Shown: one piece after another, positions 2,778-26,785 of the stretch
Position numbering within the stretch: the first letter of the stretch is position 1
Layout: each line of letters starts with the position of its first letter
Source: Gemmatimonadota bacterium
GTDB taxonomy: Bacteria; Gemmatimonadota; Gemmatimonadetes; Gemmatimonadales; Gemmatimonadaceae
Reading direction: 5' to 3'
DNA: 43,608 nt
Assembly: GCA_040389905.1 (NCBI GenBank)
Contig: JAZJZK010000037.1
Location: 1 to 43,608, forward strand
The notes under the pieces: model-generated
The model's input: the letters and a program-made list of their open reading frames with translations, nothing else
What the model was told of the DNA's origin: nothing
The model's database searches: none
Position numbers and translations under genes: made by a program

Positions 2778-4195
2778 ACGACGGCCTCCGTCGATGCGCC
2801 GCTGCGGGCGACGAGCCGCACGACATACTCCGATCCGATCAGCCGCTGAAAGAGCGCCCGCTGTAACACCAGGCGGAAGGCGCCATCGCCGAATTCTTCG
2901 AGCAGGGCGAAGAGGCGTTCGACATCGCCCTTCCACGTATAGGGCCGTTGGTGAATGAGCTCCGTGAGGTACGCCTCACCGACCGGCCCGAGTTCCAAAA
3001 TCCGCTCCCGCATGAAGTACAGCCGCTTCCGCGAGCCTGCGACGGCGGCGAGTTGCGCGGCCCGCTGGCCCGGCAAGTAGCTGACGCTGCCCTGCGTGGG
3101 AAAGCGCGGATGGACGGCCTCGTGCTTACTCCCCGCCGTGACGATCTTCACGCGCGTCGGATAGAGCCAGAGGGTCGCCGGTAAGCCACACGCGCCGGCC
3201 GGCATGGCATAGCGCACGCCCTGATGCGTGACCATCGCCGTGGGACCGACCGTGACGGCCACGCACAGCCCGTACTCACTCGGTGCGACGGCGAGTGGCT
3301 TCATGCGTGCCTGCTCTGCCGGCAATCGGGTGGCAGGGAGCTCCTTCGTCGCGCGATTGGGCCGCGTCGTGTTCACCTCGGTCAGCCATTCGGTGAGCTG
3401 CTGCGGGAGATCCGTCGTCAGATCGGTGAAGCGACGTGCCCGAACAAAGGCGCGCTTCACGTAGCCGACGAGATTCTCCACCGCCCCCTTCTGCTGCGGC
3501 TGGCGGGGCGTGCACAGCTCAATCGTAAACCCGTAGTCGATCGCGACCGGGGCGAGCACCGCATTCCACACCGGCCGGCCCTCGTCGTGCCGGATGACCA
3601 CCGTCTTCGGATTGTCGAACACGACGCGGAGCGGCACCCCACCCGATGCCGCGAAACTATCGAGCAGACTCCGGATCAACGCCTCGACGCGCTCGTTCGG
3701 CACGACGACGACGTGCATCCAGCGCGAGTACTTGAGGCGGTACGCCGCGAAGTGGATGGTGCGACGACTGCCCTCGGTGAGCCGCACACTGACCTGGCCG
3801 AAATCGAATTGCGCAAACTCACCGGCCACCCCTTCAAACCGCACGAGCAGCGCGGCCGGCATCGTCGCGCGCGTGGCGGCCAGCACGCGATACACCGTAC
3901 TCAGACCGACCGGGGTGCCCTCGTCGGTGAGCAGTCGGCAAATCTCGCCGGGCGGCCGCTCCGGATCCTCCACCAGCAGGGCCTGCACGCGGGCCCGAAT
4001 CGCGTCGGTGATACGCGGCCGGCCGATCGCGCGGGTGCGCCGCGCCGCGTCGTCGTCGCCGGTCTCCACCCGCCCCTCGCGAATGATCCGTCGCACGGTG
4101 CGGAGACACACCCCGAACTGCCTGGCAATTTCACGCGCGGTGACCTTCGCGCGGACCAACTCCTGAACGGCATGTCGATCCAACATCCTGAGCAT
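2774..4195 (-). CDS. istA: IS21 DDE transposase
   Basis: N-terminal HTH and the DDE motifs AQFDFG, VVFDNPK, KGAVE. Confidence 0.95.
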   Translation of the reverse strand: MLRMLDRHAVQELVRAKVTAREIARQFGVCLRTVRRIIREGRVETGDDDAARRTRAIGRPRITDAIRARVQALLVEDPERPPGEICRLLTDEGTPVGLSTVYRVLAATRATMPAALLVRFEGVAGEFAQFDFGQVSVRLTEGSRRTIHFAAYRLKYSRWMHVVVVPNERVEALIRSLLDSFAASGGVPLRVVFDNPKTVVIRHDEGRPVWNAVLAPVAIDYGFTIELCTPRQPQQKGAVENLVGYVKRAFVRARRFTDLTTDLPQQLTEWLTEVNTTRPNRATKELPATRLPAEQARMKPLAVAPSEYGLCVAVTVGPTAMVTHQGVRYAMPAGACGLPATLWLYPTRVKIVTAGSKHEAVHPRFPTQGSVSYLPGQRAAQLAAVAGSRKRLYFMRERILELGPVGEAYLTELIHQRPYTWKGDVERLFALLEEFGDGAFRLVLQRALFQRLIGSEYVVRLVARSGASTEAVV

Positions 4196-5685: not shown

Positions 5686-5767
5686 CGAACGGCTCCAGTA
5701 CGGGTGGCGGGAACGGCAGACCAGATCGGGAGAATATGTGCGCATGATCAGCCCTGCACGAGGCTCG

Positions 5768-5837
5768 AGGTGCGGGCCCTTCACTTCGTTCCCTTCGTCG
5801 CTGCGCTCCTCGACGGCAGGCAGGCGACACAACGAGC
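5768..5837. repeat. REP-like repeat, type B (expanded form)
   Basis: GTGCGGGCCCTTCACTTCGTTC...GGCAGGCAGGCGACACAACGAGC aligns by eye with 14558-14626 and with the reverse complements of 30004-30044 and 33114-33154. Confidence 0.7.
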
Positions 5838-5982
5838 GGACACGCACGGTGACCAGCAGCATGGTGGGAGGGTTCGGCTTATCAGCACCTGTACTGCATA
5901 CTATCTTTTCAACCGAGCAGATGAGGGTGACCCGGGCGTTGAGTGTCCGGAAGACATGATGCCTTGGTCCCTTACTCCCCGT

Positions 5983-9543: not shown

Positions 9544-9858
9544 TCAATCCACCGACTCCTCTGCCTCCTCACCGTGCTCGACTATGTCGCCCTCGGTGAA
9601 CAGGATTTCCTTGAGGATTTTCCGCCACTTGGGGGTCGCACGCAGGAGGAATTCCAGATCCATGCCGAAGTGCTTCATCTCCTCCTGCATGGCATTTTGC
9701 ATGATTGCCTTGGCCGACCGATTCTTCTCGAGGGAGATGCGCTGCGTGTACCAGCCGATCGCCTCAGCCTCCTCGGTAAGGGAGGTGATCATTCGCGCAA
9801 ATGTGCGAGTCCGCTCCGATAGCTCGTTCGGCGGCTCATGGTACTGGTCGAAACCCAT
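9544..9858 (-). CDS. Encapsulin-associated-type ferritin-like protein
   Basis: YHEP..LS..TR, SLTEEAEAIGWYTQR, EEMKH and LFTEGDI match the EncFtn/Flp pattern. Confidence 0.85.
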   Translation of the reverse strand: MGFDQYHEPPNELSERTRTFARMITSLTEEAEAIGWYTQRISLEKNRSAKAIMQNAMQEEMKHFGMDLEFLLRATPKWRKILKEILFTEGDIVEHGEEAEESVD

Positions 9859-9937
9859 GGCGTGTCCCTGGTCTGTGTGTACCAAGGACACGGGCATGTA
9901 TGGGGCCAGCGGCATTTTCAATCAAACCAGACTGAGC

Positions 9938-12504: not shown

Positions 12505-13299
12505 TCACCGGCCGAAATGCGTCGGTGTGTTCGACGTGAACACAGAGCGGTTCTTCGCAAGGATGAAAACGCCCATGCACACGAGAAAGATCGCGAAGGC
12601 CTGCTTGAGGGTTCGTTGCGCAACGAACCGGGCGAGATAGGTCCCCGCCAGAATGCCGCCGACGGCGATCGCTCCAAATCCGGCCATGAAGCCCCAGGGC
12701 ACATCCACTCGCCCAGCATACCCGGCGAAACCCGATGCGCAGTTCAGCGCGATGACGAGGAGCGATGTGCCTACCGCGCGCTTCATCGGCGTTCTGGCAA
12801 GGATCACCAGCGCAGGCACGACGAGGAATCCACCACCGATACCGACGACGCCGGTCAGCAGCCCGACGAAGAGCGCCACCAGAAGGAACAATCCATACGA
12901 CGCGCCATCGGACGAATCCTCGGCGATCGACGAACCGGCGGGTCGCCGCGCGTTGCGAAACATCGCAATCGCCGCGGCAAGCATGGCGACGGCGAGCAGT
13001 GACAGTTGCACGGCACCACTCAGAAACACGGCGAGGCGGGCGCCGGCGAACGCACCGCCCATCGCGACGATGCCGAACGCGAATGCGGTCCGCAGGTCGA
13101 CGTTGCCGGCTTTCCATTGGCTGAGCGCGCCGACGAGGCTGGTCACACCGACGACGGGAAGACTCATCGCGATGGCGAGCTTCGGATCGTAGCCGAGGAC
13201 GTACACAAAAACCGGAACCGTCAGAATCGAACCACCGCCGCCCATCACGCCGAGCGAAAGGCCGATGAGCGCGGCGAGAGCGTAACCGAGTATGAGCAT
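12505..13299 (-). CDS. Sulfite exporter TauE/SafE family protein
   Basis: GLSLGVMGGGGSILTVP and GVVGIGGGFLVVPAL..AVGTSL internal repeats; about 8 TM helices. Confidence 0.9.
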   Translation of the reverse strand: MLILGYALAALIGLSLGVMGGGGSILTVPVFVYVLGYDPKLAIAMSLPVVGVTSLVGALSQWKAGNVDLRTAFAFGIVAMGGAFAGARLAVFLSGAVQLSLLAVAMLAAAIAMFRNARRPAGSSIAEDSSDGASYGLFLLVALFVGLLTGVVGIGGGFLVVPALVILARTPMKRAVGTSLLVIALNCASGFAGYAGRVDVPWGFMAGFGAIAVGGILAGTYLARFVAQRTLKQAFAIFLVCMGVFILAKNRSVFTSNTPTHFGR

Positions 13300-13349: not shown

Positions 13350-16187
13350 TCAAGACGGTCCCCACGGAAAATGACGGTACAGCATCGTCCACGTGCGTAC
13401 GATTCGCGGCAGGAACGGCTGTGGGCGAAAGCGATCGATCATCGCGTACATGGCGAGGCGGTCGACGAGGAGCTCACAGAGCGCGGCGCGAAAGCCCGTC
13501 TCCCACTCCACGGGGTCGATGCGCGTGCCACACGCGGCGCCGAGTTGCTCGCGAGATCGCTCCACCCACACGGCAACGTCGGCACGCGACGCGTCAGCGG
13601 AAAGCGTCCAGCAGAGCAATTCGGCAAGGTCTCGCTGCGGGAGGCCGAGTGTCGCCAGCTCCCAGTCGAACACGCAGAGACGCGGTTTCCGTTCGTGGCG
13701 GATTGCGACATTGCGCGGATTGAAGTCATTGTGAATGAGCGTCCGAGGCAACGCGGTGAGCGCGTCCGCCCAGCCTGGCATCGCATCGAGCAGACGCGTG
13801 TGCGCCCGCGCGACAAACGCATTGCGCCAGGCGGGTGCGTGTGTGAGCGCGTGGTCGGCCGAAGCGCGCCAGAAGGGCGCCATCGACTGCAAGCGCTCAC
13901 GCGAGCGCACCGGAGCCAACCAGGGCTGCGCGGCGAGGTCGGTCGCTCGGCCGTACCATATCGGGTGAATCTGCGCTGCGCCCTCGATCGCAGTGCGGAG
14001 TGACGCTGAGTCCCACGCGACGCTCTCCGCGCGCGCGTCGAACAACGCGGTCGACGGGATTTCCTCCAGCACGAGCGTCACACGGCCTGTTTCACGATCA
14101 TGTGAGCCCGCAAGCAATTCCGGCGTATGCGCGCGCATGCGATGATCGGTATCGCGGTACAATGCGAGCTCGCGCACGTCACCTCGGGTGAGTCCGTGGG
14201 CATCGGAGCAGCGAGCGAACTCGCGCCCGAGGTCCGCGCTGGCCAGCGCCGCGACGCACTCCGCGACTTCGATGACACGTGCGTCCGGCGGCTTGATCTT
14301 CACAACGGCGCGGGCGGTTACGGCTCCGCGCCGGCTCGAGAGGGCGACTTCCCCGCGAAAGAGTCCGATCGCGGCGCCTTCGCGCCAGGACGTGATCTCG
14401 GAGATGATGCTGTCCTCGCCACCCAATGGCGTGAGGGTGATTCCGGTGATGCGTAGAGATGCATCGTCGTGCCGCCGCTGCAGACTCTGCTCGATTTGCG
14501 GCAAGAGGTCGTCGATGCATGGATGCGTCGTCTCGGTCGCTTTGGGCGAGCGTGGACGTGCAGGCCCTTCGCTACGCTCACTTCGTCTCTTGCGTTCCTC
14601 GAGGGCAGGCAGGCGACGAAACGAACGGGAAGGCGGCAACACGCCGTCCGCGACGTACTGCGCGAAATAGCGATCGAGCAACGCCGTTCCGACCGTGGCG
14701 CAGCCGGCGTCCAGTCGATCCAGACGCGCGCGACTCCGGTCATCTCGCACATGCGCACGGCGACCGTCCTGATATGCTTCGGGGAGGGTGAGCCCTGCCC
14801 CGCCCGAAATCGCGCTCAGGAAGAAGGAGCGCAGCGGATGCAGCGGATGGCCTGGCGTCGCTTCGGCACGCAATCGCGCGGACCATTCGTCATACGGCAC
14901 GAGGTCGATATCGTAGCCACACAGGCGCATCCATAGCACACACTCACGCCAATGGCGCGGCCGCGCCGCAGAGATGTGCGGGACCATGACCGCGTCATCG
15001 TGGCTCAACGCGAGACGAACGATGGCGCGCGCGACGTGATCGACGGGCAAGCAGTCCACACGCCAGTCGAGATCCGGTGCACACTTCATCGCAACGCAAC
15101 CGCGGATGAAACGCGTCAGCAAGTCATCCGTGTTGGAAAGGCCGGTGACGCTGTCACCCGATACCAGCGCCGGCCGCATGATTGACACGGGCAACCCGCG
15201 CCGCCCTGCCTCCATCACCAGCGACTCGGCGACGCACTTGCTTTGCGCATAGCCGAGCCGGAGACCCTCCGCGAAGGGCAGTGCCTCCTGCCCTTCGCAC
15301 ACGATGCGCGGTCCCTCGAGCGAGTAGCAGACGCTGAGACTCGAGACGAAATGCACTGGTTTGGGCGTTCCGCGACAGGCGAACCGCAGCACCTCCTCGG
15401 TTCCCTGTACGTTCGCCGCACGCAACGCATCGTACGAGCTGACCCAATCGACCTGCGCGCCGCAATGGATAACCGCGTCGACACGAGTCGCGAGGTCGGT
15501 GAATCCTGCTTGCGACAGGCCGAACAACGGGAGCGTAAGGTCACCGTCAACAACGTGCATACGACTCGCGGCCGAGTCGTCACCCGGAGCGAGGTCGCGG
15601 GGGCTGCACGTTCCACCTGTGCTCGAGGTGCAGACCCCTCGACGCGCTTCGCTTGCTCGGGGTGACATAACCCGATAGCGCTCGAGGTTTGCGATGATCC
15701 GTTGGTGCGCGGACATTCCCTTGCCGGAGCGTGCAAGGCACAGGATCGTCGCGTCAGTTTCGTCGAGCAGCGTCCGCAGCAGGTAAGCACCAAGAAAGCC
15801 CGTGGCACCAGTCAGCAAGATGCATCGTGCGTCGCGCAGGGGAACTGGCTGCGTTCCCGCGCCGACGTTGGGCCTGATATCGTCGGCCAGAATAGCATCA
15901 GCGCGCATGCGGTCGAACACGGAGCGGTCCTCGACGGCATCACCTTCGAGGTAACGCACCAGTTCCGCTACTGTCCGATGTTCGTGCACTGCACTCAGAG
16001 CCACTTCAATGCCGGTGACGTCCTCGATGGCCGCGGACAGTTCCGCGGCCGTGAGCGAATCGAGGCCGAGCGACGCGAACGATGTGTCGTCACCGATGAC
16101 GTCCGGCGAGACGCGCAACACGTCCGCGACGGCGCTCCGCACCTGGTCGCCGAGGCAGGCGACGCTGCCGATTGCGGTGGTGGTCAC
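13350..16187 (-). CDS. ACP - thioester reductase - APH/choline-kinase-like phosphotransferase fusion
   Basis: LGLDSL (Ppant Ser); LLTGATGFLG and GYAQSK (SDR reductase); HNDFNPRN and FDWEL (kinase). GTG start overlaps the FAAL stop. Confidence 0.88.
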   Translation of the reverse strand: MTTTAIGSVACLGDQVRSAVADVLRVSPDVIGDDTSFASLGLDSLTAAELSAAIEDVTGIEVALSAVHEHRTVAELVRYLEGDAVEDRSVFDRMRADAILADDIRPNVGAGTQPVPLRDARCILLTGATGFLGAYLLRTLLDETDATILCLARSGKGMSAHQRIIANLERYRVMSPRASEARRGVCTSSTGGTCSPRDLAPGDDSAASRMHVVDGDLTLPLFGLSQAGFTDLATRVDAVIHCGAQVDWVSSYDALRAANVQGTEEVLRFACRGTPKPVHFVSSLSVCYSLEGPRIVCEGQEALPFAEGLRLGYAQSKCVAESLVMEAGRRGLPVSIMRPALVSGDSVTGLSNTDDLLTRFIRGCVAMKCAPDLDWRVDCLPVDHVARAIVRLALSHDDAVMVPHISAARPRHWRECVLWMRLCGYDIDLVPYDEWSARLRAEATPGHPLHPLRSFFLSAISGGAGLTLPEAYQDGRRAHVRDDRSRARLDRLDAGCATVGTALLDRYFAQYVADGVLPPSRSFRRLPALEERKRRSERSEGPARPRSPKATETTHPCIDDLLPQIEQSLQRRHDDASLRITGITLTPLGGEDSIISEITSWREGAAIGLFRGEVALSSRRGAVTARAVVKIKPPDARVIEVAECVAALASADLGREFARCSDAHGLTRGDVRELALYRDTDHRMRAHTPELLAGSHDRETGRVTLVLEEIPSTALFDARAESVAWDSASLRTAIEGAAQIHPIWYGRATDLAAQPWLAPVRSRERLQSMAPFWRASADHALTHAPAWRNAFVARAHTRLLDAMPGWADALTALPRTLIHNDFNPRNVAIRHERKPRLCVFDWELATLGLPQRDLAELLCWTLSADASRADVAVWVERSREQLGAACGTRIDPVEWETGFRAALCELLVDRLAMYAMIDRFRPQPFLPRIVRTWTMLYRHFPWGPS
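14558..14626. repeat. REP-like type B copy inside the reductase-kinase linker
   Basis: Homologous to 5768-5837; translated in frame as ..SFRRLPALEERKRRSERSEGPA.. Confidence 0.7.
15579..15666. repeat. 88-bp palindromic REP-like type A copy inside the reductase domain
   Basis: Reverse complement matches 26673-26760 (40/42 and 28/31 identical in the two arms). Confidence 0.85.
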
Positions 16188-17998
16188 GGCGCACCTGCAT
16201 GCGCGAGTTCGCGCCTGGATTGACGTGGCGAAGCAATTACCGACGCCTTCGTCCAGCGCGCGAGCTCATCGAGAGCGCCCGTCTCGAACGCGTCGCGACA
16301 CGCGTGTCGTTGCAGCTTGCCGCTCGTCGTCTTCGGCAACGTGCCTTGCGTGATGAGAACCACCGCCTCGAGCTGAATGCCGTGCTGCTCCATCACCGCG
16401 AGACGAATGGCCGACGCGATTCTCGACAACCCCTCTGATGCGTCATCGCCGAGCACCGCTAACTCTCGTGCGCCGACCTCGGCGAGCATCGCGACGCCCT
16501 CACCCTCGAGGGCATCCACGACGAATGCTGCCGAACATCCAGGACGAATCGGAACTCCTGCCCGCTCCGCGGTGAGCTCGAGGTCCTGCGGGTAGTGCTT
16601 GGCTCCACGAATCACGAGAAGGTCCTTGATCCGTCCCGTGACGACAACTTCACCTTCGTGGAGTACGCCGAGATCGCCGGTCCGAAGAAAGGGACCTTCG
16701 CCCGTCGCGAGGTGCGCGTGGAAGGTGGCGGTGGTTTGCGCCGGTCGCTTCCAATAGCCGAGCGCGACGCTCGGTGACGACGTCCAGATCTCCCCGATAT
16801 TGCCGGGCGCGCAAAGTTCGCACGTTTCCGGATCGACGATTCGGACGTCGGTGTCGCTCCCCGGTGATCCGCACGTCATCAGTTCCACTGAGCGAACCGC
16901 CTCTGTCGAGCGCACCGCGCGCAAGCTGCCCTGTGCGAGCACCTCTGCGTCAGCGGTGAGGCTCGTTGGCTCCCGATCGCGTCGGCTCGTCGACACGAGC
17001 AGCGTGGACTCCGCGAGTCCGTATGCGGGAAAGAACGACGTGCGTTCGAACCCTGCTCGGCGAAAGGTGTGATGAAACGCGTCGAGGGTTGCCGCGCGCA
17101 CCGGTTCCGCGCCGTTGTAAGCGCACCGCCAGCTCAAGAGATCGAGCGCATCGATCTCGTGCGGTGTGGCTTTTCGAACGCAGAGGTCGTAGGCGAAGTT
17201 CGGGCCGCCGCTGTTCGTTCCGCGATATCGCGAGATCGCCCGCAGCCATCGCAGTGGACGCTGGAGGAACGCCTCCGGCGCCATCAAGTACGCGGGATAG
17301 CCGGCGTACATCGGTTGAAGCACGCCCTCGATGAGCCCCATGTCGTGAATGACCGGCAACCACGAGACCTCGACACTGCTGGCGTCATTGCGCGCGAGAT
17401 GATGCAGGTACGCGAGGTTGTGGAGCAGGTTGCCGTGGCTCACCATCACCCCTTTCGGCGTTGCCGTGGAGCCCGACGTGTACTGGAGAAATGCGAGCGT
17501 GTCGCGACCCACGGCCGGTCGGCGCCAGGCAGCGGCTTCGTGGTCGCCAATCGTGTCCGTCGCGAGCCATGGCACGCCGCGAAAGGCTTTCGCGACGGCA
17601 GCCAGTTGCGGTGCCATGCGCGCGAGTGCATCCGTCGTCAACACGATCGAGGCATCCGAGTCCGTCGATACGGCGACGAGGCGTGGTACGGTACGCGCGA
17701 GCTGCGCGGGATGCGGCGGATAGGCCGGCACTGCAATTACGCCGGCGAAGAGGCAACCGAAGAACGCGCTGATGAACTCCAGTCCCGGCGTATAGAGAAG
17801 CAATGCGCGATCGCCCGGCTGCACGCCGCTCTCCCGCAGCGAGGCCGCGATGGCACGCGCGCGCGTCGCAACCGCATCGAAGGAGTGGACTGCGCCCTCG
17901 ACTTCGCCGTCGTCGAGGAAGGTGTACGCACGCGCCGAGCCCCGATCACCAGCGCGATACTCGATCAATTCAATCAGGGATTCGAATGCCCGCGTCAT
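16184..17998 (-). CDS. Fatty acyl-AMP ligase (FAAL)
   Basis: AFLQYTSGSTATPKGVMVSHGNL, SWLP..HDMGLI, GGPNFAYDLC, YGLAESTL, FLRTGDLG, PKTTSGK. Confidence 0.93.
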   Translation of the reverse strand: MTRAFESLIELIEYRAGDRGSARAYTFLDDGEVEGAVHSFDAVATRARAIAASLRESGVQPGDRALLLYTPGLEFISAFFGCLFAGVIAVPAYPPHPAQLARTVPRLVAVSTDSDASIVLTTDALARMAPQLAAVAKAFRGVPWLATDTIGDHEAAAWRRPAVGRDTLAFLQYTSGSTATPKGVMVSHGNLLHNLAYLHHLARNDASSVEVSWLPVIHDMGLIEGVLQPMYAGYPAYLMAPEAFLQRPLRWLRAISRYRGTNSGGPNFAYDLCVRKATPHEIDALDLLSWRCAYNGAEPVRAATLDAFHHTFRRAGFERTSFFPAYGLAESTLLVSTSRRDREPTSLTADAEVLAQGSLRAVRSTEAVRSVELMTCGSPGSDTDVRIVDPETCELCAPGNIGEIWTSSPSVALGYWKRPAQTTATFHAHLATGEGPFLRTGDLGVLHEGEVVVTGRIKDLLVIRGAKHYPQDLELTAERAGVPIRPGCSAAFVVDALEGEGVAMLAEVGARELAVLGDDASEGLSRIASAIRLAVMEQHGIQLEAVVLITQGTLPKTTSGKLQRHACRDAFETGALDELARWTKASVIASPRQSRRELAHAGAP

Positions 17999-18768
17999 AT
18001 GCTGAGCGCCTCCACGCGGTTCCCATCGACGAACTCGACGCTCAGGGGGGACGTGCCAGCGCGCACCGCGTCGTGAACGCGCACATAGAAGTCGTGCACG
18101 CGATCGCGGTTGTACTCGACGTCATAGACGTGCCACAGGCATGTTTCGATCGGGGGGAGCATCCACACATCGATCATCCCAGGCTTCGCGTCGTACCCCA
18201 TCCAGGGGTTCGACGCCGTTGGTATGTCGAAATAGATCGGAACGATGGGAGCGCCGAGTGCCGTGGCGAGGTGAAAGGACCCCTTGTTGAAGTGGCCGAT
18301 CTCTCCCGAGATGACGCGCATTCCCTCCGGACTGAGATACACCGAGTCTCCCGTCCGCCGAAGAATGCGCTCGGCTCGTTGAAAGATCTGCCGGCGTTTC
18401 TCGGGAAATTCCTGCGGAACGGTCCAGAAGATTCGAATCAGGTATCCCACGATGCCAATGGGAATCATCTTCTTGAGGAAACCACTCAGGAAGAAGCGCG
18501 TGCGCGGCAAGCCGAGTGCGATGAGCACGAAGACGTCGAGCGTCGACGTGTGGTTGGAGATATAGACGACCTGACCTGTTACCTGCGGTCCGCTCGCAAT
18601 CACGCGATACTCTATGCCCCAAATGCGCAGCACCGCCTTCCCAAGCCATTTGCCGATGACTTCTGCGTATAGTCGCCGCGCCATGAAGAGCGTCGGAATT
18701 GCGACGAGGAGCATGACGAGCGCGCCGAGCGTCATCACCACAAAGGTGAGTGCAATACGCATCTTCAT
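17995..18768 (-). CDS. PlsC-like lysophospholipid acyltransferase
   Basis: NHTSTLD (HX4D) and SPEG..R..FNKGSF motifs; ATGA overlaps at both ends. Confidence 0.9.
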   Translation of the reverse strand: MKMRIALTFVVMTLGALVMLLVAIPTLFMARRLYAEVIGKWLGKAVLRIWGIEYRVIASGPQVTGQVVYISNHTSTLDVFVLIALGLPRTRFFLSGFLKKMIPIGIVGYLIRIFWTVPQEFPEKRRQIFQRAERILRRTGDSVYLSPEGMRVISGEIGHFNKGSFHLATALGAPIVPIYFDIPTASNPWMGYDAKPGMIDVWMLPPIETCLWHVYDVEYNRDRVHDFYVRVHDAVRAGTSPLSVEFVDGNRVEALSI

Positions 18769-19760
18769 GACTTCCTCCGGCACACCACGGTCTGCATGGC
18801 GAAGTTCAGATGCTTCTCGAACGCAAGCACGGGGGCAAACAGCAGCTGTCCGATGAAGTAGGGGTAGATGGCGCGTGACAGATTCAGCCCCTTCCCCTTG
18901 AGCAGCTTGAACGCGGCCCCCGCGAAGAAGTAGAAGAACGCGGGAAACGCGCCGTACGGCAGGTACTCGACGAGCTCGAGCCCAGCCTTGTCGATTGCCG
19001 CAAGCAATGACGCCCTGTCATAGAGTACCGTGTGCTGCGGTGCCTGAAGGCCCGGCCAACGATCGCCGTACAGGCGGAAGGTGAGGCTGTCGAGTCGCGG
19101 GACTTCGATGATCAGACGACCGTCCGGCGCGAGCAGATCGCCTGCCGTGCGCAATGTGCGCATCGGATCGTAGTCATGCTCGAGGAAGTGCCACATCGTG
19201 ATGAGATCGAAGCGCTGTGCTCCAAAGTCCTGTTCGTAGAACAGGCCGCAGCGAAAGTCCACGTTCGCAAGCGACGGATGGGCGCTCAGATCCTTGAAGT
19301 CCACGCCAGTCCCCTTCGCGCCGTAGCGCACGCGGAGCTTCTCGAGGAACGTCCCGACGGCGCACCCAACGTCGAGCACACTGCTGCGCTGGCTCAGTCG
19401 TACGTAGCGGCTGACCAACGCGTCTTTCTGGCGATCATGGCGGTCCATCGCCCAGTTGAAGAAGCCAGTGAGCGGACCCCAGTCTCCCTTCTTTCGGTGC
19501 GCGATGTACTCGTCGTCGTAGTACTCGCCGATGTACTCGATCCTGATGCGCGGGTTTTGGTAGGTCAGCCCACAGGCATTGCACTTTACGAACGCGAACC
19601 GACCCGGCTTCCCGGTGAGGTCATCCTCCGCCTCGATGAATGGTGTATACCGGTGACTGCGGCACAGATAGCACAGTACGATTTCGCGCTCGACGAGTCT
19701 GGTTGCGCGCGGAGTGCCTCGCGTCGTGTACCCTTCCGTGTTGGGAGCAATGGCGGTCAT
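18765..19760 (-). CDS. Class I SAM-dependent methyltransferase with N-terminal CxxC..CxxC zinc ribbon
   Basis: CYLC..CNAC, VLDVGCAVG, FDLITMWHFLEH. Confidence 0.9.
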   Translation of the reverse strand: MTAIAPNTEGYTTRGTPRATRLVEREIVLCYLCRSHRYTPFIEAEDDLTGKPGRFAFVKCNACGLTYQNPRIRIEYIGEYYDDEYIAHRKKGDWGPLTGFFNWAMDRHDRQKDALVSRYVRLSQRSSVLDVGCAVGTFLEKLRVRYGAKGTGVDFKDLSAHPSLANVDFRCGLFYEQDFGAQRFDLITMWHFLEHDYDPMRTLRTAGDLLAPDGRLIIEVPRLDSLTFRLYGDRWPGLQAPQHTVLYDRASLLAAIDKAGLELVEYLPYGAFPAFFYFFAGAAFKLLKGKGLNLSRAIYPYFIGQLLFAPVLAFEKHLNFAMQTVVCRRKS

Positions 19761-20356
19761 GGCTGTGAACCTCGGCCGAAGATGAGCGGTTGTAGGGAGG
19801 GATCATCGAGCGTTTCGTAAATACAGAGGAGCAGGTACAGGGAGACCAGAACGGGCACCGCGATGATCGGTGTTCGTAGCTGGCCTGGCGCGATGAGGAC
19901 AACGATGACGGGATACTTGGAGAGCACCGCGTAGGCACTGAGCCGCGACGATCCGAGTATCCGCCGCGTGCGATACCAGATCGTGAGCGCAATGCACAGG
20001 GCGATGAAGAGCAACAGCCGCGACGGCGAATCGCGTCCCGTCAGCATCAGGGCAATCCAGCCGAACGCGGCGCTTTCGCCGAGGATGACAAATGCGTTGG
20101 ACGACGTAATGCGCACGGTGATGCGGTTCGGATGCTCAACCGCATCGCGTGTGCGGTCGGCCAGATCATCCCACACCCTCAGCGCGAGTATGAGGAGGAA
20201 GGCGGACGTGAGCGTGCGCAGTAGAGCGATGAGTGGTTCGGCAGGTTTCGTGGAGACCAGAAACGCCGCACCGCTGAGCACGATGGCCAGCAGCACGAAT
20301 CGCTGTCCAACAAATCGCTCGGCGAGATACGCGCGCATGATTTCAGTGCGCGACAT
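19757..20356 (-). CDS. Short UbiA-prenyltransferase-like membrane protein
   Basis: LRVWDDLADRTRDAVEHPNR matches the UbiA first Asp-rich motif (DxxDxxxD..PxR); multiple TM helices; AAGGAG RBS before ATG 20356. Confidence 0.65.
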   Translation of the reverse strand: MSRTEIMRAYLAERFVGQRFVLLAIVLSGAAFLVSTKPAEPLIALLRTLTSAFLLILALRVWDDLADRTRDAVEHPNRITVRITSSNAFVILGESAAFGWIALMLTGRDSPSRLLLFIALCIALTIWYRTRRILGSSRLSAYAVLSKYPVIVVLIAPGQLRTPIIAVPVLVSLYLLLCIYETLDDPSLQPLIFGRGSQP

Positions 20357-23039
20357 GGACACGCTCCTTGTCGGCGTCCACGGTGATCTGCGCGCCGTCA
20401 GGAATGACCGCCGTTGCATTGCGCACACCGACGACGCATGGAATGCCGAACTCACGAGCGAGGATGGCTCCGTGCGACAGCATGCCGCCGCGCTCGATGA
20501 CGAGACCCGAGATGAGGAAGAACACCGGCCCCCATCCCGGATCGGTCTGTCGCGTCACGAGGATGTCGCCCGCGACGAGCCGCTCCGCCTCGGCAACATC
20601 TCGCAACACCGCGGCTCGGCCCGTGACGTTACCGGCGCACGCGGTGGTTCCGCGTAGCGTGGACTCGCCCTCCGCGTGGTCGTGCACGACAGCATCCGAC
20701 GCCGCGACCCCTCCGGCGGCGAGATAGCCACCGTCCGACAGGATGAACGAATCTGGCGGGGACGCGTCCGCGAACGCCGCGTGCGCCTGCGACCGCAATG
20801 CTGCGAGCGCGCGTGCTTCGTGCGGGAACATCGCTCCACCGGCGGCCAGTTCCTGAAGCTCTGCCATCGTAAACCAGAAGACGTCGTCACGCGTTGCGAG
20901 CAGGTCGCGCCGCACGAGGTGGTCGCCAATCCCGAGTGCAACGCCGCGCAGCCGGCTGTAGAGCAACGCCTGCTTGAGGCGCGCGCGCTCACGGTAGCGG
21001 ATCGCCGCATGAGTCCACGGCAGCAACACGCGAAGGACCGAAGCCCAGGTCATCCACGGAATGACCCGAATACGCTGCGCTGCCAGCGTCGCCATCGCGC
21101 GCATCGTTTCGACTTCACGTTCTGCACTCTGACGCGCCATCGCTTCGAGCGGCGACTCCGCGTCCAACTTCGCGTACGCGCGGAGCATCGCAATCACGGG
21201 CGCCGGTTGTTCCTGAAACGACGGCGTCGTGAGCATCAGCTCGGACGAACAACGGAAACCCCACTCCTCGAGATACCGGTCGAACGCTATGCGAAAGTCC
21301 GTGAAGCGCGCGTCCACCGTGATTGTGCGCAGCACTGCGGCGGGTTCCTCATGCTCCACCAGGTCCGCCAATGGCGGGTTTGCCCGGATGAAGCGCGAGA
21401 GTTCCCACAGCCGATGCACCGGTTCGTTGCTGACGACGCGTGGGATCGCCTTGAGCAGCGAGGTGTGAGCCACTCCAACGCCGTCCGGATACGCCCGCGC
21501 AATGAGCCGTTGCAGTAGCCCGTAGCACACCATGGCGGCGAGATCGGCCAGAGATGCGTCCGTCCATCGATGGCAGCGAATGGACATGAAGTCGGACAGC
21601 AACTGGCGCAGCCCAGCGAGATCGAGTGTTCCGAGCTGCGCCGGATGGGATCGCGCCGCGAACTCGTCGACATCTCGCTCGAATGAGCGAATGCGCCGTT
21701 CGATCGTGAGGTAGTTCCATGTTGAACGGGCGGCGACGACGCAAATTTCCACGAGCCGTCGGAACCTTCCATCACGCGACGGTGCGTGCTGCCCACTGTC
21801 TTGCCCCCGCGCCCCCACGAATGTGTCGAAGCTCGACGCCAACGCGTCGCCGAAAGGTGCGAGACGGATGACGGCGTGGATGTTCGTGAGGTTGTAGTAC
21901 ATCCGCCCCGCATGGACGCCGATGATCTGCGCGAACGCCGGTTCCATTGCACGAAGGCGGCGAGGGGAAACACCAAGCGCTCGACCGAGGTTCCGGAAGT
22001 AGTGTGTGTATCCCGTCGACGCGACCGAATACAGCAGCGGAGAGATCGGGGCGGGAAAATTCTCGTTGACGTTCGCGTTGGACCACACCACCACGGGGGC
22101 CGTGTCGCACTGCGCGGGCGGTGCGGCCAGCGATGCAGTGATCGGGCGCGACTGCACCACGAACAGCTCGTTCGCACTGTTCATCACCCACTCGACGTCC
22201 TGCTTCGAACCGAGCTCACGCTCGATGCGCCGCGCCGCGTCGATGAGCGATGCGATGCCCTTCGTCGAAAGGACGACGATGTCGGCCGCCGGAATCTGTT
22301 CGCCCGACGACGTAACGGCGCCCGTTTTGCGATCGATTCTGATACGTGCGGGGTCAACGGCCCCGGCGACGAGTGCGTCCCCAAGCCCGGCCGCATACTC
22401 GACGAGCAGGGCGCCATCACCGCCGTCTGTAAACATGACGCCGGCGGCGTGGGCGTGAACCTGTTCCTGCACGATGACACCCATTCCTCCGGGCTGAATT
22501 CCGCGGGCACTTCTATAGAAGAGTGCGCGCTCGGACCAGAACGACGCCCAGCAGGCGAGCACCGCACACTGCAGGGATTCGTCGTCGGTCACGTGCAGAA
22601 TGGAATCGAGCTGTCCGGCGAACGACGCGGCGGCAGAGTCTTCCCCGACGGCCGAACTCCGAACGACAACCGACCCGCGCTCGAGTAGTGGTCGTGCATG
22701 GGCCAGCAGCGCTTCCTGAACGTCGTCGGGTAGCGATGCGCCGCACACGAGGCGACGAATCTCAGCCGACGCCTGCGCCCGGTCTTCCGCGCGTATGAAG
22801 TCGCGTCCGGCGCAGCGGCTGCGAATGTCACCAGCAATCCCAGCGTGCTCGAGGTGCCGTTCGAGCGCCTCACAACGAAGCACGAACCCTTCAGGAACTC
22901 GCACACCACGTCGCATCAGTCGGCCGAGCGTATGTGCCTTTCCGCCGACGAGCGTCACGTCGAGGCTCGTGTCGAGCGAAGCGAGCAGCCTCGCGCGTCC
23001 CGGCGCATGCTGCCGTCTGGTCAACACGGATGCAGTCAT
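20343..23039 (-). CDS. PEP-synthase/rifampin-phosphotransferase-like dikinase (ATP-grasp, central substrate domain, C-terminal His swivel)
   Basis: VGGKA, VRSSAVGED..SFAGQ, QDVEW, VQSRPIT; C-terminal TDPGW..GGMLSHGAILAREFGIP. Confidence 0.9.
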   Translation of the reverse strand: MTASVLTRRQHAPGRARLLASLDTSLDVTLVGGKAHTLGRLMRRGVRVPEGFVLRCEALERHLEHAGIAGDIRSRCAGRDFIRAEDRAQASAEIRRLVCGASLPDDVQEALLAHARPLLERGSVVVRSSAVGEDSAAASFAGQLDSILHVTDDESLQCAVLACWASFWSERALFYRSARGIQPGGMGVIVQEQVHAHAAGVMFTDGGDGALLVEYAAGLGDALVAGAVDPARIRIDRKTGAVTSSGEQIPAADIVVLSTKGIASLIDAARRIERELGSKQDVEWVMNSANELFVVQSRPITASLAAPPAQCDTAPVVVWSNANVNENFPAPISPLLYSVASTGYTHYFRNLGRALGVSPRRLRAMEPAFAQIIGVHAGRMYYNLTNIHAVIRLAPFGDALASSFDTFVGARGQDSGQHAPSRDGRFRRLVEICVVAARSTWNYLTIERRIRSFERDVDEFAARSHPAQLGTLDLAGLRQLLSDFMSIRCHRWTDASLADLAAMVCYGLLQRLIARAYPDGVGVAHTSLLKAIPRVVSNEPVHRLWELSRFIRANPPLADLVEHEEPAAVLRTITVDARFTDFRIAFDRYLEEWGFRCSSELMLTTPSFQEQPAPVIAMLRAYAKLDAESPLEAMARQSAEREVETMRAMATLAAQRIRVIPWMTWASVLRVLLPWTHAAIRYRERARLKQALLYSRLRGVALGIGDHLVRRDLLATRDDVFWFTMAELQELAAGGAMFPHEARALAALRSQAHAAFADASPPDSFILSDGGYLAAGGVAASDAVVHDHAEGESTLRGTTACAGNVTGRAAVLRDVAEAERLVAGDILVTRQTDPGWGPVFFLISGLVIERGGMLSHGAILAREFGIPCVVGVRNATAVIPDGAQITVDADKERVHVAH

Positions 23040-23623
23040 GCCGGCCTCGCTTTCACGCCGAGGCGGAACAGAAGAATGCTGAAGCCGAGGTGGATCACGG
23101 GGCCGACGAGCGCCACGTACGCCCACGTTTGCCACGGAGTCGGTGTCGCGAGACTGATCGCCGCCATTGCTCCGACGATTGAATCGAAGCGGTCCACAAC
23201 GAACGACACGACAGATCCGATGCTGCCGGTCGCGCCATCACCCGGGGCAATATCGAGTTGACGCTTCGCGAAGGAGTTGGGGAGCTCGCCTAACATGAAA
23301 CCGAGCCCCGCCCACAGGCCGAGCGCGGCAAACTGCATCGGCGTGAGTGGCCACATGCGGTCGCGCACAGAGGGCGCCGTAGTTTCGAGCATCGACGCCA
23401 GTGCCCAGAAGGACAGCGCCGATGCGGGCGGCATCGCGACAAACCCTCGGACGGTCTTGTTGTCGCCGAACAGTCGGCGGCCGCGCAGCCGCAGTCGGCC
23501 GTCAATGGGAATGAGCAGCGCGCGTGATGCGGCGGACGCGAGCCATGCCGAATGAACCAGGCCGGCCGTCATGAACGCCACGACAACGAAGAGCGCCGTC
23601 ACGAGCGGATCGATGGATGTCAT
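23036..23623 (-). CDS. CDP-archaeol synthase (CarS/DUF46)-like cytidylyltransferase
   Basis: PIDG..RGRRLFGDNKTVRGF, GFMLGELPNSFAKRQLDIAPG and DRFDS; hydrophobic, 195 aa. Confidence 0.8.
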   Translation of the reverse strand: MTSIDPLVTALFVVVAFMTAGLVHSAWLASAASRALLIPIDGRLRLRGRRLFGDNKTVRGFVAMPPASALSFWALASMLETTAPSVRDRMWPLTPMQFAALGLWAGLGFMLGELPNSFAKRQLDIAPGDGATGSIGSVVSFVVDRFDSIVGAMAAISLATPTPWQTWAYVALVGPVIHLGFSILLFRLGVKARPA

Positions 23624-23630
23624 CGCCGCC

Positions 23631-24644
23631 TCAGATGTCCGCGCCCGTTTCCAGGCGATTCTGAAAGAGGAAGACTTCGCCTGGGAGCGCGCGCGCGCGC
23701 CGGATCCACGTCCACCAGTCGATCTCGTTCTCCGTCTCGTACGCGATGGCGCTCAGCTTGTACCCCGGCACGAAGGGGTACATGTGGTGGAGCTCATGCG
23801 CGTCGATATGCAGCAGCAGCGCCGAGAGCCACGCCGGAAACACGAGCGAACGCGTGAAGACTTCCTGTTCGATCGCCGGAAATGGGCGCACCGGACCGCC
23901 GTCGCTGACATTCTGCGGTACGTGCGTATGCTGACTGAGCAGGAGGAGGTCCTCTGCCATCAGCGTGAGCACCAGCGCCAGCCCGAACATGCGAAGCACG
24001 GCACTCGGACCGAGCAGCAGGATCACCGCAGCGTATACGGCGAGGAAGCCCAGCATGTCGATCGCCAGCCGTCGCTGCTCGGCGGGTTTGCTGAAGAGCT
24101 GCTTCATGCGCGGCCAGTTCCAGAAGTTGTTCAGCCGGTAGAGCACCGAGAACAGTGGAATCCAGAACTTCCATGAGATGTTGACGAGGAATTTTTCGGC
24201 CGCTCCGAGCCGGCGCGGAACGAGCGCGGCGGTCGTCGGGTCAACATCCTGCCATCCCGTCCATTTATGGTGCCGTCCGTGGACGCGCTTCCAATTATGA
24301 AAGGGAATGAGGGAGAAGAACGCCGCCAGATAGCCGAGCGGCACGTGAAGACGTTTGGTGCGAAAGAGCGTGTCGTGTCCGCACTCGTGCAGGAGTGCAA
24401 ACCACTGGACCATTGCAGTGGCGAGCAGAAGCTGTCCGACCAGCCAGAGCACGATGGTAGGCTGCGCCGAGAGCAGGAGTGCGCCGGCGGTGAGCGCGAT
24501 CGCTTGTCCGGCGACGGCGGCGCCAGCGGCGTCACTGGCACGCAGATGAGTGAGTTGTGCAGGCGTGGGTGCAGCACCGTGATCCATGAGACCGGCCTCC
24601 GCTGAGGTGATTCTTGCGGGCCGATCGTACAAACCGGAGGTCAA
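23631..24644 (-). CDS. Membrane fatty acid desaturase family protein
   Basis: Three His boxes HECGH, HGRHH and HELHH. Start uncertain (TTG 24644 or ATG 24587). Confidence 0.9.
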   Translation of the reverse strand: MTSGLYDRPARITSAEAGLMDHGAAPTPAQLTHLRASDAAGAAVAGQAIALTAGALLLSAQPTIVLWLVGQLLLATAMVQWFALLHECGHDTLFRTKRLHVPLGYLAAFFSLIPFHNWKRVHGRHHKWTGWQDVDPTTAALVPRRLGAAEKFLVNISWKFWIPLFSVLYRLNNFWNWPRMKQLFSKPAEQRRLAIDMLGFLAVYAAVILLLGPSAVLRMFGLALVLTLMAEDLLLLSQHTHVPQNVSDGGPVRPFPAIEQEVFTRSLVFPAWLSALLLHIDAHELHHMYPFVPGYKLSAIAYETENEIDWWTWIRRARALPGEVFLFQNRLETGADI

Positions 24645-24730: not shown

Positions 24731-24820
24731 ATGCACCGCAGCGTAGTCCTCCTCCTTACCAACGCCCTCGGCCGAATTACTGGTCGCGGGCTTTCGTGCT
24801 TGGGAGGACTTACCGAGTAA
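24731..24820 (+). CDS. leu operon leader peptide (29 aa, MHRSVVLLL...)
   Basis: VVLLL control codons; lies between the promoter and a strong terminator upstream of leuA. Confidence 0.75.
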   Translation: MHRSVVLLLTNALGRITGRGLSCLGGLTE

Positions 24821-24837
24821 CGCAGAGCGTGCGTTGC

Positions 24838-24883
24838 GAACGGCCCCTCCCGCGTGATCGTGGGAGGGGCCGTTCTGCTTTTT
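24838..24883 (+). terminator. leu attenuator terminator
   Basis: 17-bp stem GAACGGCCCCTCCCGCG-tgat-CGTGGGAGGGGCCGTTC followed by TGCTTTTT. Confidence 0.85.
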
Positions 24884-25126
24884 GGGTAGTCGCAGGCACC
24901 TTGCACGACACAACGAAGAAGCGTTCGCGACCCGCTCGCGCGACTCGGGGAGTTCTTACACCCCTTCACCGCCGACGTGTCCCATGAGTGCTTTCCAGAA
25001 GCCAGAACATCCCGTCCATCAGTCCAACGCCGCGTCCGCTACGCAACCCGGACGGCGGTCGAGCGTGCAGCCTGATGCGCCCGCCGCGACGCATCAGCGC
25101 GCCTTTCCGCAGGCCGACGGAGAACC

Positions 25127-26785
25127 GTGAGCCCCGACCGAATTCCGGCGCGGGACCACGTACGGATCTTCGATACGACGCTTCGGGACGGCGAGCAATC
25201 GCCCGGCTGCACGATGTCGCTGGTCGAAAAGCTCGAGGTGGCCCGCCAGCTTGCTCGGCTGGGAGTCGATATCATCGAAGCGGGATTTCCCTCCGCCTCA
25301 CCTGGTGATGCCGACGCGGTCCGTGCGATCGCGGAAGCGTTTGCCGACGATGATAGTCCGGTGATCTGTGGCCTCGCGCGCGCATTGGAGGGCGATGTCG
25401 AGACGTGCATCGCATCCCTGGCGCCTGCGGCTCGCGCGCGCGTTCACGTCTTCCTTGCGACGTCCTCCATTCACCTGGAGCACAAGCTCCGGTGTACGCA
25501 CGATGAGCTAATTGCGCGCGCGACAACGGCCGTGCGACTGGCGCGCTCGAACGTGAACGACGTCGAGTTCTCGCCGGAAGATGCGACGCGTTCCGACCCT
25601 GTGTTTCTCCTCGACGTCCTCGCCGCCGTGATCGAGGCCGGCGCGACGACGCTCAACATTCCCGACACCGTCGGCTACACGACACCGAGTGAGTACGAGT
25701 CCCTGATTGCGCGAGTCTGTGCCCTCGCTGCGCGGACACCCGGCGTCGTTGTCTCGACACATTGCCACGACGACCTCGGCCTCGCGGTGGCGAATTCGCT
25801 AGCCGGCGTGCGCGCCGGCGCACGGCAGGTCGAGTGCACGATCAACGGGATCGGCGAGCGCGCAGGCAACGCATCGCTCGAAGAGATCGTGATGGCGCTG
25901 CACACGCGCGCGGATCACTTCGGGGTGCGCACGCAGATTCAGAGCGGGGAGTTGATGCGATCATCGCGCATCGTATCGGCCTGCACAGGGGCATACGTCG
26001 CGCCGAACAAGGCGATCGTCGGCGCGAATGCATTCGCGCATGAGGCGGGCATTCACCAGGACGGCATGCTGAAGCATTCGTCGACGTACGAGATCATCTC
26101 GCCGGAGACGGTGGGCGCCGACGGCAGCACCCTGGTACTCGGCAAGCACTCGGGACGGCACGCGCTTCGGAAACGCCTTTCGGCGCTGGGGTACGAGCTC
26201 CCAGAGGACCGCTTTCTCGAGGTCTTCACGCGCTTCAAGGCACTGGCCGACCGAAAGAAGGTGGTGAACGAGCGCGACCTCGCGGTGCTGGCCACTGGGG
26301 CGCAGGAGCATGCGCCGTCGGGCTGGACGCTCGAGCAGCTTCAGGTAACCTGCGGCACGCATCTCATTCCCACGGCGACGGTGCAGCTACGTGGACCAGA
26401 TGGGGCATTGCGCATCGCGTCGTCGACAGGAAGCGGTCCGGTCGATGCAAGCTGCCGCGCCGTCGATGGCGTCGTGGGGGAGACTGGAGAACTGCAGGGC
26501 TTCACCGTGCGCAACGTATCCGAGGGCCACGAATCGCTCGGCGAAGTGACGGTGCGGCTGAAGGATTTCCACTCGTCACGAACGTATGTCGGCCATGGTG
26601 CGCATACCGATGTCGTGACCGCGTCGGCGGAGGCGTATGTCGATGCGATCAACTGCCTGCTCTATTCCAACTGTCACCCCGAGCGAGCGAAGCGAGTCGA
26701 GGGGTCTGCACCTCACGAACAGCGTGGAAGTGCAGACCCCGCGACTTCGCTCGGGGTGACAGCGTTCGAAGAGGTGCTCGTATGA
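25127..26785 (+). CDS. leuA: 2-isopropylmalate synthase
   Basis: [45 protein letters not shown]; regulatory domain present. Confidence 0.97.
26671..26762. repeat. Palindromic REP-like type A copy forming the LeuA C-terminal tail
   Basis: CTGTCACCCCGAGCGA...TCGCTCGGGGTGACAG; encodes [30 protein letters not shown]. Confidence 0.85.

Follow-up and report, generated by a model that had tools for sequence, protein, structure and literature searches.

A fused acyl carrier protein, thioester reductase and kinase in a Gemmatimonadota operon: a predicted route from fatty acid to alkyl phosphate

The way in which alkyl ethers arise in aerobic soil bacteria has yet to be settled (PMC11868695). Among the closest described systems are the reductase FcrA, the ElbD protein of Myxococcus xanthus, the archaeal ether-phospholipid route and the terminal reductase (R) domains of nonribosomal peptide synthetases (NRPS) and polyketide synthases (PKS). 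FcrA, a homologue of 3-hydroxy-3-methylglutaryl-CoA (HMG-CoA) reductase (HMGR), reduces fatty acyl-CoA to alcohol but leaves HMG-CoA unreduced, and its authors suggest that some FcrA enzymes supply ether-lipid synthesis (PMC11948995). Here we analyzed a 43,608-nt stretch of DNA from a bacterium of the Gemmatimonadaceae (Gemmatimonadota; assembly GCA_040389905.1, contig JAZJZK010000037.1, positions 1 to 43,608, hereafter the window), which encodes a 945-aa protein joining an acyl carrier protein (ACP), a thioester reductase and a kinase. This three-domain architecture is real and conserved. As judged from sequence comparison, the protein probably turns a fatty acid into an alkyl phosphate, with a fatty alcohol formed first and then phosphorylated by the fused kinase. 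The protein and its domains are as follows.

13350..16187, minus strand: ACP, thioester reductase and kinase of the aminoglycoside phosphotransferase (APH)/choline-kinase fold in one chain, 945 aa (open reading frame (ORF), Pfam, NCBIfam, alignment and model)
15948..16148, minus strand: ACP domain, aa 14-80, with the codon of the phosphopantetheine (Ppant) serine Ser44 at 16056-16058 (PF00550, E 1.8e-18; S44 in 82/82 homologues)
14625..15923, minus strand: thioester reductase, an extended short-chain dehydrogenase/reductase (SDR), aa 89-521, with TGATGFLG at 15789-15812 and YxxxK at 15237-15251 (TIGR01746 over cut-off; fold match 4u7w)
13353..14510, minus strand: APH/choline-kinase-fold kinase, aa 560-945, with HNDFNPRN at 13710-13733 and DWE at 13659-13667 (PF01636 over cut-off; model and fold searches)

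All Pfam matches of the protein were above cut-off: PP-binding at aa 14-80 (E 1.8e-18), NAD_binding_4 at aa 125-389 (E 4.8e-63) and APH at aa 684-868 (E 3.8e-12; 46.9 bits, cut-off 23.2). The corresponding motifs lie at aa 41-44 (GLDS), 126-133 (TGATGFLG), 313-317 (Y313xxxK317), 819-826 (HNDFNPRN) and 841-843 (DWE), and the full chain was modelled with a predicted local distance difference test score (pLDDT) of 90.3 and a predicted TM-score (pTM) of 0.89. Searching proteins of 519-1654 aa with the C-terminal 386 aa (8000 candidates scored) returned 469 matches, and in 108 of the best 120 (window protein included; manual count) an ACP and a reductase stood alongside the kinase region. Across 82 full-length homologues spread down this best-120 list, the Ppant serine S44, the reductase residues S282, Y313 and K317 and the kinase residues K630, K632, E673, H819, D821, R825, N826, D841, E843 and D853 were invariant (82/82). 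A chance or assembly fusion is ruled out by the recurrence of the architecture in homologues and related loci, and a pseudokinase by the invariance of the catalytic set.

As fold searches with the whole chain returned only the reductase, the C-terminal 386 aa were modelled alone (pLDDT 94.4, pTM 0.93). The model matched APH/choline-kinase-type structures over its whole length, the best being 8agy (Z 18.3; root-mean-square deviation (rmsd) 4.2; 288 aligned). It carries the HxDxxxxN loop (H819, D821, N826), the DxE metal motif (D841, E843), the beta3 Lys (K630) and the helix-C Glu (E673), which we take to have their usual catalytic roles. PF01636 was found in 57 of 58 family members; sequence searches of the PDB with the kinase gave weak APH/ACAD11 matches at most. 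The domain is thus a member of the APH/choline kinase superfamily and is predicted to transfer phosphoryl groups from ATP to a hydroxyl. The top fold matches, a natural-product kinase, choline kinases and a homoserine kinase, were tied at Z 17-18 with identities of at most 18%, so the fold gives the chemistry and not the substrate. The 25-hydroxy steroid kinase (9ft5; hereafter 25-HSK) ranked third in Foldseek (Z 15.2), an enzyme with low activity on primary 26-OH steroids (PMC8449060). A preliminary description of the gene, made from the sequence alone, had called it an unusual tri-domain protein from its GLDS, TGATGFLG, YxxxK, HNDFNPRN and DWE motifs. Every one of these is present and lies in a matching Pfam or TIGR01746 domain, the unusual architecture recurs in the homologue search, and the C-terminal region does model as the kinase fold which that description required; its choline-kinase-like motifs, however, do not tell which substrate is used.

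The middle domain is a genuine thioester reductase: it scored 275.6 on TIGR01746 (cut-off 213.35) and has the Rossmann Gly motif, the S-Y-K triad and the R-domain fold. Its closest solved relative is the myxalamid R domain MxaA-R (4u7w; Z 50.1, rmsd 2.0, 389 aligned), which we take to be an alcohol-forming enzyme. An NRPS/PKS terminal release domain it is not, as the kinase follows R and no condensation (C) or ketosynthase (KS) domains were present in the operon proteins scanned. Nor is the protein a carboxylic acid reductase (CAR), scoring 124.5 against 1300 on NF041592, with the fatty acyl-AMP ligase (FAAL) encoded by a separate gene. The reference for MxaA-R is cited for alcohol products in PMC8024701.

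The strongest indication of the kinase substrate came from the partners of its relatives. A kinase family search gave 1076 representatives at E <=0.001, of which the best 150 were examined. There were 100 with more than 150 residues N-terminal of the kinase, and all 100 carried a thioester reductase: SDR-type in 84 and HMGR-like, which is non-homologous, in 16. The SDR-type proteins comprised 40 ACP-R-kinase, 39 R-kinase and four FAAL-ACP-R-kinase chains (4/150 relatives) and one with a dikinase piece. The remaining 50 had a reductase fragment (nine) or the kinase alone (41, being fragments or stand-alone enzymes). Likewise, among the long relatives of an HMGR-type kinase, PF00368 was present in all 120 listed of 1236 matches, some of them from cultured Gammaproteobacteria. 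A quick, unrooted tree was built from 90 kinase domains, the window's included, after 61 of the 150 had been set aside as short or partnerless; in it the 16 HMGR-fused kinases formed one clade with a support of 99 in the SH-like approximate likelihood-ratio test (SH-aLRT).

These HMGR-like domains bear the signature of FcrA, in which the catalytic residues are kept, Ser684 is replaced by Glu and Leu862 by a bulky residue, and the carboxylate-binding Lys (printed as Lys795 in PMC11948995 and as Lys735 in PMC9500038) is lost (PMC11948995). In 44 aligned HMGR-kinase fusions the four catalytic residues were present in 44/44, position 684 was E in 41 and D in three, position 862 was F in all 44, and Lys was absent at both columns around the Lys735 position. 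The FcrA-type E and F were also present at two further loci, L159 and L160, where the Lys position was unclear. Given this signature, a mevalonate or phosphomevalonate shortcut by the HMGR-kinase is ruled out, and neither HMG-CoA synthase, mevalonate kinase nor any other mevalonate-pathway enzyme was found among 62 neighbouring ORFs scanned at HMGR-kinase loci.

Moreover, the FcrA-kinase occurs in the same kind of operon. The HMGR-kinase alignment retrieved 80 metagenome loci, of which 18 held the fusion, and 16 of these 18 had at least one gene of the set found in the window and its related loci: the dikinase in 13, the CDP-alcohol transferase in 10 (one weak), the UbiA-like gene in nine and the CarS-like gene in eight. 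Further neighbours included acyl-CoA-ligase-family enzymes, phosphatidylserine decarboxylase, desaturases, PEMT-like enzymes and a DUF3419 gene. In two genomes (G304 and G415, distant matches in the scan that gave 5/121 Acidobacteriota, see below), one operon combined the FcrA-kinase with CarS-like, dikinase, UbiA-like, methyltransferase, acyltransferase and desaturase genes, its methyltransferase being 54% identical to that of the window; no FAAL-like gene was found within 19.9 kb. There the FcrA-kinase replaces the FAAL and the ACP-R-kinase, so that FAAL plus ACP-reductase and FcrA fill the same slot before the kinase. Because of the reductase pairing (100/100) and this exchange within the operon, the kinase most likely acts on a fatty alcohol.

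Accordingly ordered, the predicted steps would be: i) the FAAL loads a fatty acid onto the ACP via acyl-AMP, giving acyl-ACP; ii) the reductase, in view of the FcrA exchange and its likeness to MxaA-R, releases the acyl chain as a fatty alcohol; iii) the kinase phosphorylates the alcohol to an alkyl phosphate, an order that would follow from the same comparison. The reduce-then-phosphorylate release of the preliminary description thereby gains comparative support from the FcrA-like fusions, but not as a release step of an NRPS, PKS or CAR. Product release would fall to the reductase, with the kinase acting only afterwards, in a stand-alone lipid-precursor enzyme that belongs to an eight-gene lipid operon which that description did not bring up.

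Several points weigh against this reading: i) R domains can be two-electron enzymes and may stop at the aldehyde (PMC8024701); ii) the best whole-protein NCBIfam equivalog match was MxcG, far under cut-off; iii) the kinase has no close solved relative, and its tied fold matches share little identity with it; iv) 41 of the 150 relatives were kinases alone; v) with all HMGR-fused kinases in a single clade, the swap counts as one event in evolution and not as 16; vi) the fusion could instead place the kinase near a later intermediate. Taking up the first point, the reductase could halt at a fatty aldehyde, which the PigC/RPH-like enzyme of the operon would activate and condense while the kinase acts elsewhere; that dikinase does score 260-312 bits on the PigC and RedH models, under their cut-offs. 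We consider this very unlikely, since the exchangeable partner is FcrA-like and FcrA yields alcohol, and since pyrrole, amine and transaminase genes are not conserved near the operon.

Several features of the HMGR-kinase and related loci stood apart. At L159:929-13027 (genome G304) the FcrA-kinase operon has IS110, IS481-like and integrase genes on its flanks and a split dikinase gene, consistent with recent mobility. Gammaproteobacterial HMGR-kinase operons (L080, L081, L082, L088, L091) contained an MMPL transporter, a PRK09274-type ligase and a gene of 350-390 aa (e.g., L081:15398-16540) which had no Pfam or NCBIfam match and matched neither DUF3419 nor the methyltransferase, and many gammaproteobacterial fusions had an extra N-terminal domain of ~130 aa. 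In three variants of the gene set, L108, L121:15381-16067 and L151:2726-4093, a stand-alone HMGR-like reductase was accompanied by a membrane protein in place of the APH kinase (with DUF3419 in L121 and L151). This membrane protein was found in these three loci without APH kinase and in none of 74 R-type or 18 HMGR-kinase loci; from its motifs we take it to be phytol/dolichol-kinase-like, a label that Pfam, NCBIfam and PDB did not confirm. Its occurrence where the APH kinase is missing counts in favour of the fatty-alcohol reading.

In the window the gene ends an eight-gene minus-strand run, whose order of transcription is desaturase, CarS-like, RPH/PigC-type dikinase, UbiA-like, methyltransferase, PlsC-like, FAAL-like and ACP-R-kinase. 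The operon is translationally coupled, most junctions overlapping by ATGA or GTGA; the GTG start codon of the ACP-R-kinase overlaps the FAAL stop as GTGA. Its other genes are as follows.

16184..17998, minus strand: FAAL-like adenylation enzyme, 604 aa, predicted ACP loader (best NCBIfam matches are FAAL families, under cut-offs)
17995..18768, minus strand: PlsC-like acyltransferase, likely start ATG 18768 (PF01553, E 3.3e-16; ATGA overlap)
18765..19760, minus strand: class I S-adenosylmethionine methyltransferase with N-terminal Cys pairs (PF13489, E 3.8e-25)
19757..20356, minus strand: short UbiA-like membrane protein, 199 aa (PF01040, E 7.1e-5, 22.6 bits, under the cut-off of 34.2)
20343..23039, minus strand: dikinase of RPH/PigC architecture, with ATP-grasp, substrate domain and His swivel SHGA (PF01326 and PF00391)
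23036..23623, minus strand: CarS-like CTP transferase (PF01864, 45.7 bits against 22; PDB 5guf, E 5.8e-4)
23631..24587, minus strand: membrane di-iron desaturase/hydroxylase, likely start ATG 24587, ORF open to 24644 (PF00487, E 9.8e-22)

The dikinase matched PDB 5hv2 (E 4.2e-63) with the His motif aligned; it shares architecture and His motif with RPH and PigC and scored under both equivalogs (334.9 vs 999 and 260.5 vs 1300, respectively). The CarS-like protein, above cut-off on PF01864, scored 59.8 against 148 on the archaeal equivalog NF003114. The UbiA-like protein has the conserved motifs RxWDDxxDxxxD..HPxR and YExxD, the first Asp-rich motif among them, and the desaturase has three conserved His boxes. 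Elsewhere the host genome encodes four other PF01066 proteins, one of the CdsA family and one phosphopantetheinyl transferase (PPTase).

This gene set occurs across several phyla. A GTDB genome scan found 301 stretches with relatives, the best 80 of which gave 74 loci: Acidobacteriota 45, Gemmatimonadota 16, Planctomycetota five, Myxococcota two, Nitrospinota one, Pseudomonadota one and unassigned four. Gene content was counted wherever the upstream sequence reached 8.9 kb or more, which held for 57 loci (the 17 shorter ones being excluded), with profiles built from these loci. The UbiA-like protein, methyltransferase, acyltransferase, dikinase, reductase and kinase were present in 57/57, the CarS-like protein in 56, ACP and FAAL in 55 and the desaturase in 54, in a mostly constant order. 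ACP and FAAL were lost jointly in two loci (L058 and L069), in line with the FAAL as predicted ACP loader, and the methyltransferase is the operon's most conserved gene (mostly 60-80% identity across loci). A ninth gene, for a CDP-alcohol phosphatidyltransferase, was present in 48 of the 57 loci and is not in the window. In its place a TauE/SafE gene (12505-13299, minus strand) follows the operon here, a gene not found in the 74 related loci.

After alkyl phosphate formation, the proposed pathway is more speculative. The RPH-like dikinase may raise the alkyl phosphate to the diphosphate, or may phosphorylate an acceptor, and the UbiA-like protein may join alkyl chain and acceptor; that these two genes are adjacent and are present in 57/57 loci fits the making and then spending of a diphosphate. 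Acylation by the PlsC-like enzyme would come next, the CarS-like enzyme would form a CDP-lipid, the CDP-alcohol transferase, here supplied in trans, would add a head group, and the methyltransferase and desaturase would tailor the product. As PlsC-like, CarS-like and CDP-alcohol transferase enzymes fit phospholipid assembly, an alkyl-ether phospholipid is our favoured product, though as a tentative best guess that could well be wrong; a glycerol-free lipid of the alkyl-phospho-head-group type or a diol lipid may be made instead. More doubtful is the wider proposal of a further bacterial ether-lipid route that applies archaeal logic to fatty-acid chains. There the alcohol would be phosphorylated and pyrophosphorylated, the alkyl chain transferred by the UbiA-like protein to a glycerol-type acceptor, and the product activated by the CarS-like enzyme and given its head group. 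Such a route would be modular (SDR or FcrA; APH or putative membrane kinase) and spread horizontally among soil Acidobacteriota, Gemmatimonadota, Planctomycetota and marine Gammaproteobacteria.

On the ether step itself the evidence is unfavourable on four counts: i) the known ether chemistry of UbiA and geranylgeranylglyceryl phosphate synthase (GGGPS) uses allylic diphosphates (PMC9385802); ii) the UbiA-like protein is short and under its Pfam cut-off; iii) its profile found no UbiA structure in the PDB and it had no NCBIfam match; iv) no glycerol-supplying enzyme is evident in the operon.

The last point lends something to an alternative in which the kinase acts on another lipid alcohol of the pathway. 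Candidates are an alkane-1,2- or -1,3-diol, should the desaturase act as a hydroxylase on the chain, or a monoalkylglycerol formed at a later step, and the resulting mimic of lyso-phosphatidate would be used directly by the PlsC-like and CarS-like enzymes to yield a glycerol-free diol lipid or an ether lipid. By established enzymology PlsC and CarS need a phosphate-bearing acceptor and PlsC also a free hydroxyl, and the PF00487 protein weakly matches the hydroxylases GntB and CrtR. However, the desaturase is missing in 3/57 loci and in most HMGR-kinase loci scanned, FcrA reduces plain acyl-CoA (PMC11948995), and the diol version leaves no role for the dikinase and the UbiA-like gene, both present in 57/57. 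We therefore regard phosphorylation of another lipid alcohol as rather unlikely, and phosphorylation of the fatty alcohol as the better reading.

The operon also bears on two further readings that the fold of the kinase would suggest. A head-group kinase of the choline, ethanolamine or serine type, merely fused to an operon neighbour, would account for the choline and ethanolamine kinases among the top fold matches and for the Psd, PEMT-like and CDP-alcohol transferase genes in related loci. Yet the Choline_kinase Pfam was found in just two of 58 members, the reductase fusion in 100/100 long proteins, and a route through CarS and a CDP-alcohol transferase takes the head-group alcohol unphosphorylated, which together make such a kinase a shade less probable even than the halt at the aldehyde. 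With 25-HSK, TvaE and LxmK as fold neighbours, the phosphate might on the other hand serve as leaving group in a 1-alkene-forming elimination, in the way that a separate lyase eliminates the phosphate put on by 25-HSK (PMC8449060), or the domain might be a regulatory protein kinase. To these we give the least chance of all: no lyase-like gene is conserved near the operon, which is made of phospholipid-assembly enzymes, and the atypical protein kinases Bud32 and Rio ranked last among 50 fold matches (Z 10-11.5). A fatty alcohol remains the favoured candidate substrate.

The operon was rare in the genomes sampled. It was found in 3/301 Gemmatimonadota genomes (the window's own included, one copy decayed), with two genomes of the same genus negative, and in 5/121 and 5/151 genomes of two Acidobacteriota groups. 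With such patchy occurrence (1-4% of genomes sampled) it is an accessory pathway, too rare to account in general for the ether lipids of acidobacteria; as the main route to the ether lipids of Acidobacteria and Gemmatimonadota it is ruled out by these counts. None of 417 matching plasmid records covered 80% of the protein, and no cultured carrier of the ACP-R-kinase form appeared in cluster look-ups of 20 proteins. The decayed copy (L077:8488-13288, genome G221) retains the desaturase, a broken CarS-like gene and truncated dikinase, reductase and kinase, with the middle genes missing.

The window's copy of the protein exceeds its relatives in length by ~50 aa, owing to in-frame insertion of two genomic palindromic repeats (84 and 66 nt) into loops.

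15579..15662, minus strand: insertion of a palindromic repeat into a loop of the reductase, aa 176-203 (loop of 41 aa against 12-14 in 81 homologues)
14544..14609, minus strand: repeat insertion, aa 527-548, in the reductase-kinase linker (19 genome matches of at least 55 nt; linker of 39 aa against a median of 16)

The reductase-loop repeat had 85 genome matches of at least 70 nt, and pLDDT fell below 50 at aa 184-201; both repeats lie within or beside loops modelled with low confidence. Neither insertion breaks the reading frame or hits a catalytic residue, which suggests a gene still under selection. Family A of these repeats had 191 matches on 43 contigs (85 of at least 70 nt) and family B 65 on 29 contigs (19 of at least 55 nt). 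Within the window they lie at 15579-15662, 14544-14609, 26672-26760, 33067-33109 and 5759-5839, with in-frame entry into coding sequence at two sites of this gene and at one site at the leuA 3' end; presumably they resemble the Rickettsia-type coding palindromic elements. A search for a Y1 transposase for them found none. Upstream of leuA (~24731-24885, plus strand), inspection by eye showed a short leader ORF containing three consecutive Leu codons and, after it, a GC-rich hairpin with a T run, likely a leucine attenuator. The window also holds an IS21-family pair of integrase-core transposase and IstB ATPase (1953-4195, minus strand) and an encapsulated-ferritin-like gene (9544-9921, minus strand; PF22277).

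The enzyme architecture is apparently undescribed: searches of the mainly open-access literature, in main texts without supplements, found no description of this operon or system, nor of any fatty-alcohol kinase from bacteria or fusion of a reductase to a kinase, and 'kinase', 'phosphotransferase' and 'UbiA' occur nowhere in the main text of PMC11948995. With this protein, an orphan lipid pathway represented by 301 matching stretches in GTDB genomes gains an entry step that is soluble and can be assayed directly, and cultured carriers exist for the FcrA-kinase form, among them Atopomonas sediminilitoris and Alkalimarinus coralli. Making alkyl phosphate from fatty acid with a single protein would be of biocatalytic interest, and UbiA-type transfer of a non-isoprenoid chain, if true, would be new ether chemistry across the lipid divide.

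Compared with described systems, the protein shares with FcrA the proposed four-electron reduction of a thioester to a fatty alcohol, and domains with the FcrA signature replace ACP-R and fuse to the same kinase, whereas the window's reductase is an unrelated SDR fed by FAAL and ACP (PMC11948995). ElbD combines acyl activation, ACP, reductase and PlsC-like acyltransferase in one chain. Three neighbouring genes encode the same four functions here, with a reductase that, as in ElbD, is not terminal, but with an activating enzyme of FAAL type. The window adds kinase, dikinase, UbiA-like and CarS-like proteins, none of them named for ElbD in the excerpts of PMC11948995 and bioRxiv 10.64898/2026.06.23.733905. 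With NRPS/PKS terminal R domains and CAR it shares the ACP-R didomain, the fold (MxaA-R 4u7w, Z 50.1) and the S-Y-K triad, but it lacks condensation and ketosynthase modules, its adenylation enzyme is separate and a 386-aa kinase follows R. The 25-hydroxy steroid kinase of Sterolibacterium (9ft5/9fsg) is likewise an APH-fold kinase, its substrate a hydrophobic alcohol as is predicted here, but is 14-15% identical, stand-alone and catabolic, and prefers tertiary alcohols (PMC8449060).

The archaeal ether-phospholipid route runs through GGGPS, digeranylgeranylglyceryl phosphate synthase (DGGGPS, of the UbiA family), CarS and a CDP-alcohol transferase (PMC9385802, PMC7852524). The UbiA-like, CarS-like and CDP-alcohol transferase genes of these loci resemble it, suggesting a diphosphate donor, then CDP activation and then head-group transfer. 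On the other hand, the chain here would come from a fatty acid and not from an allylic isoprenoid, no GGGP synthase (PF01884) was found in the host genome (84.6% complete), and the UbiA-like protein, at ~200 aa, falls under the cut-off of the DGGGPS-type family (22.6 vs 34.2 bits). The protein is not a CAR, an NRPS/PKS terminus or an ElbD; its working would most resemble that of FcrA or of ElbD's front half, coupled to enzymes that look like the late ones of archaeal lipid synthesis.

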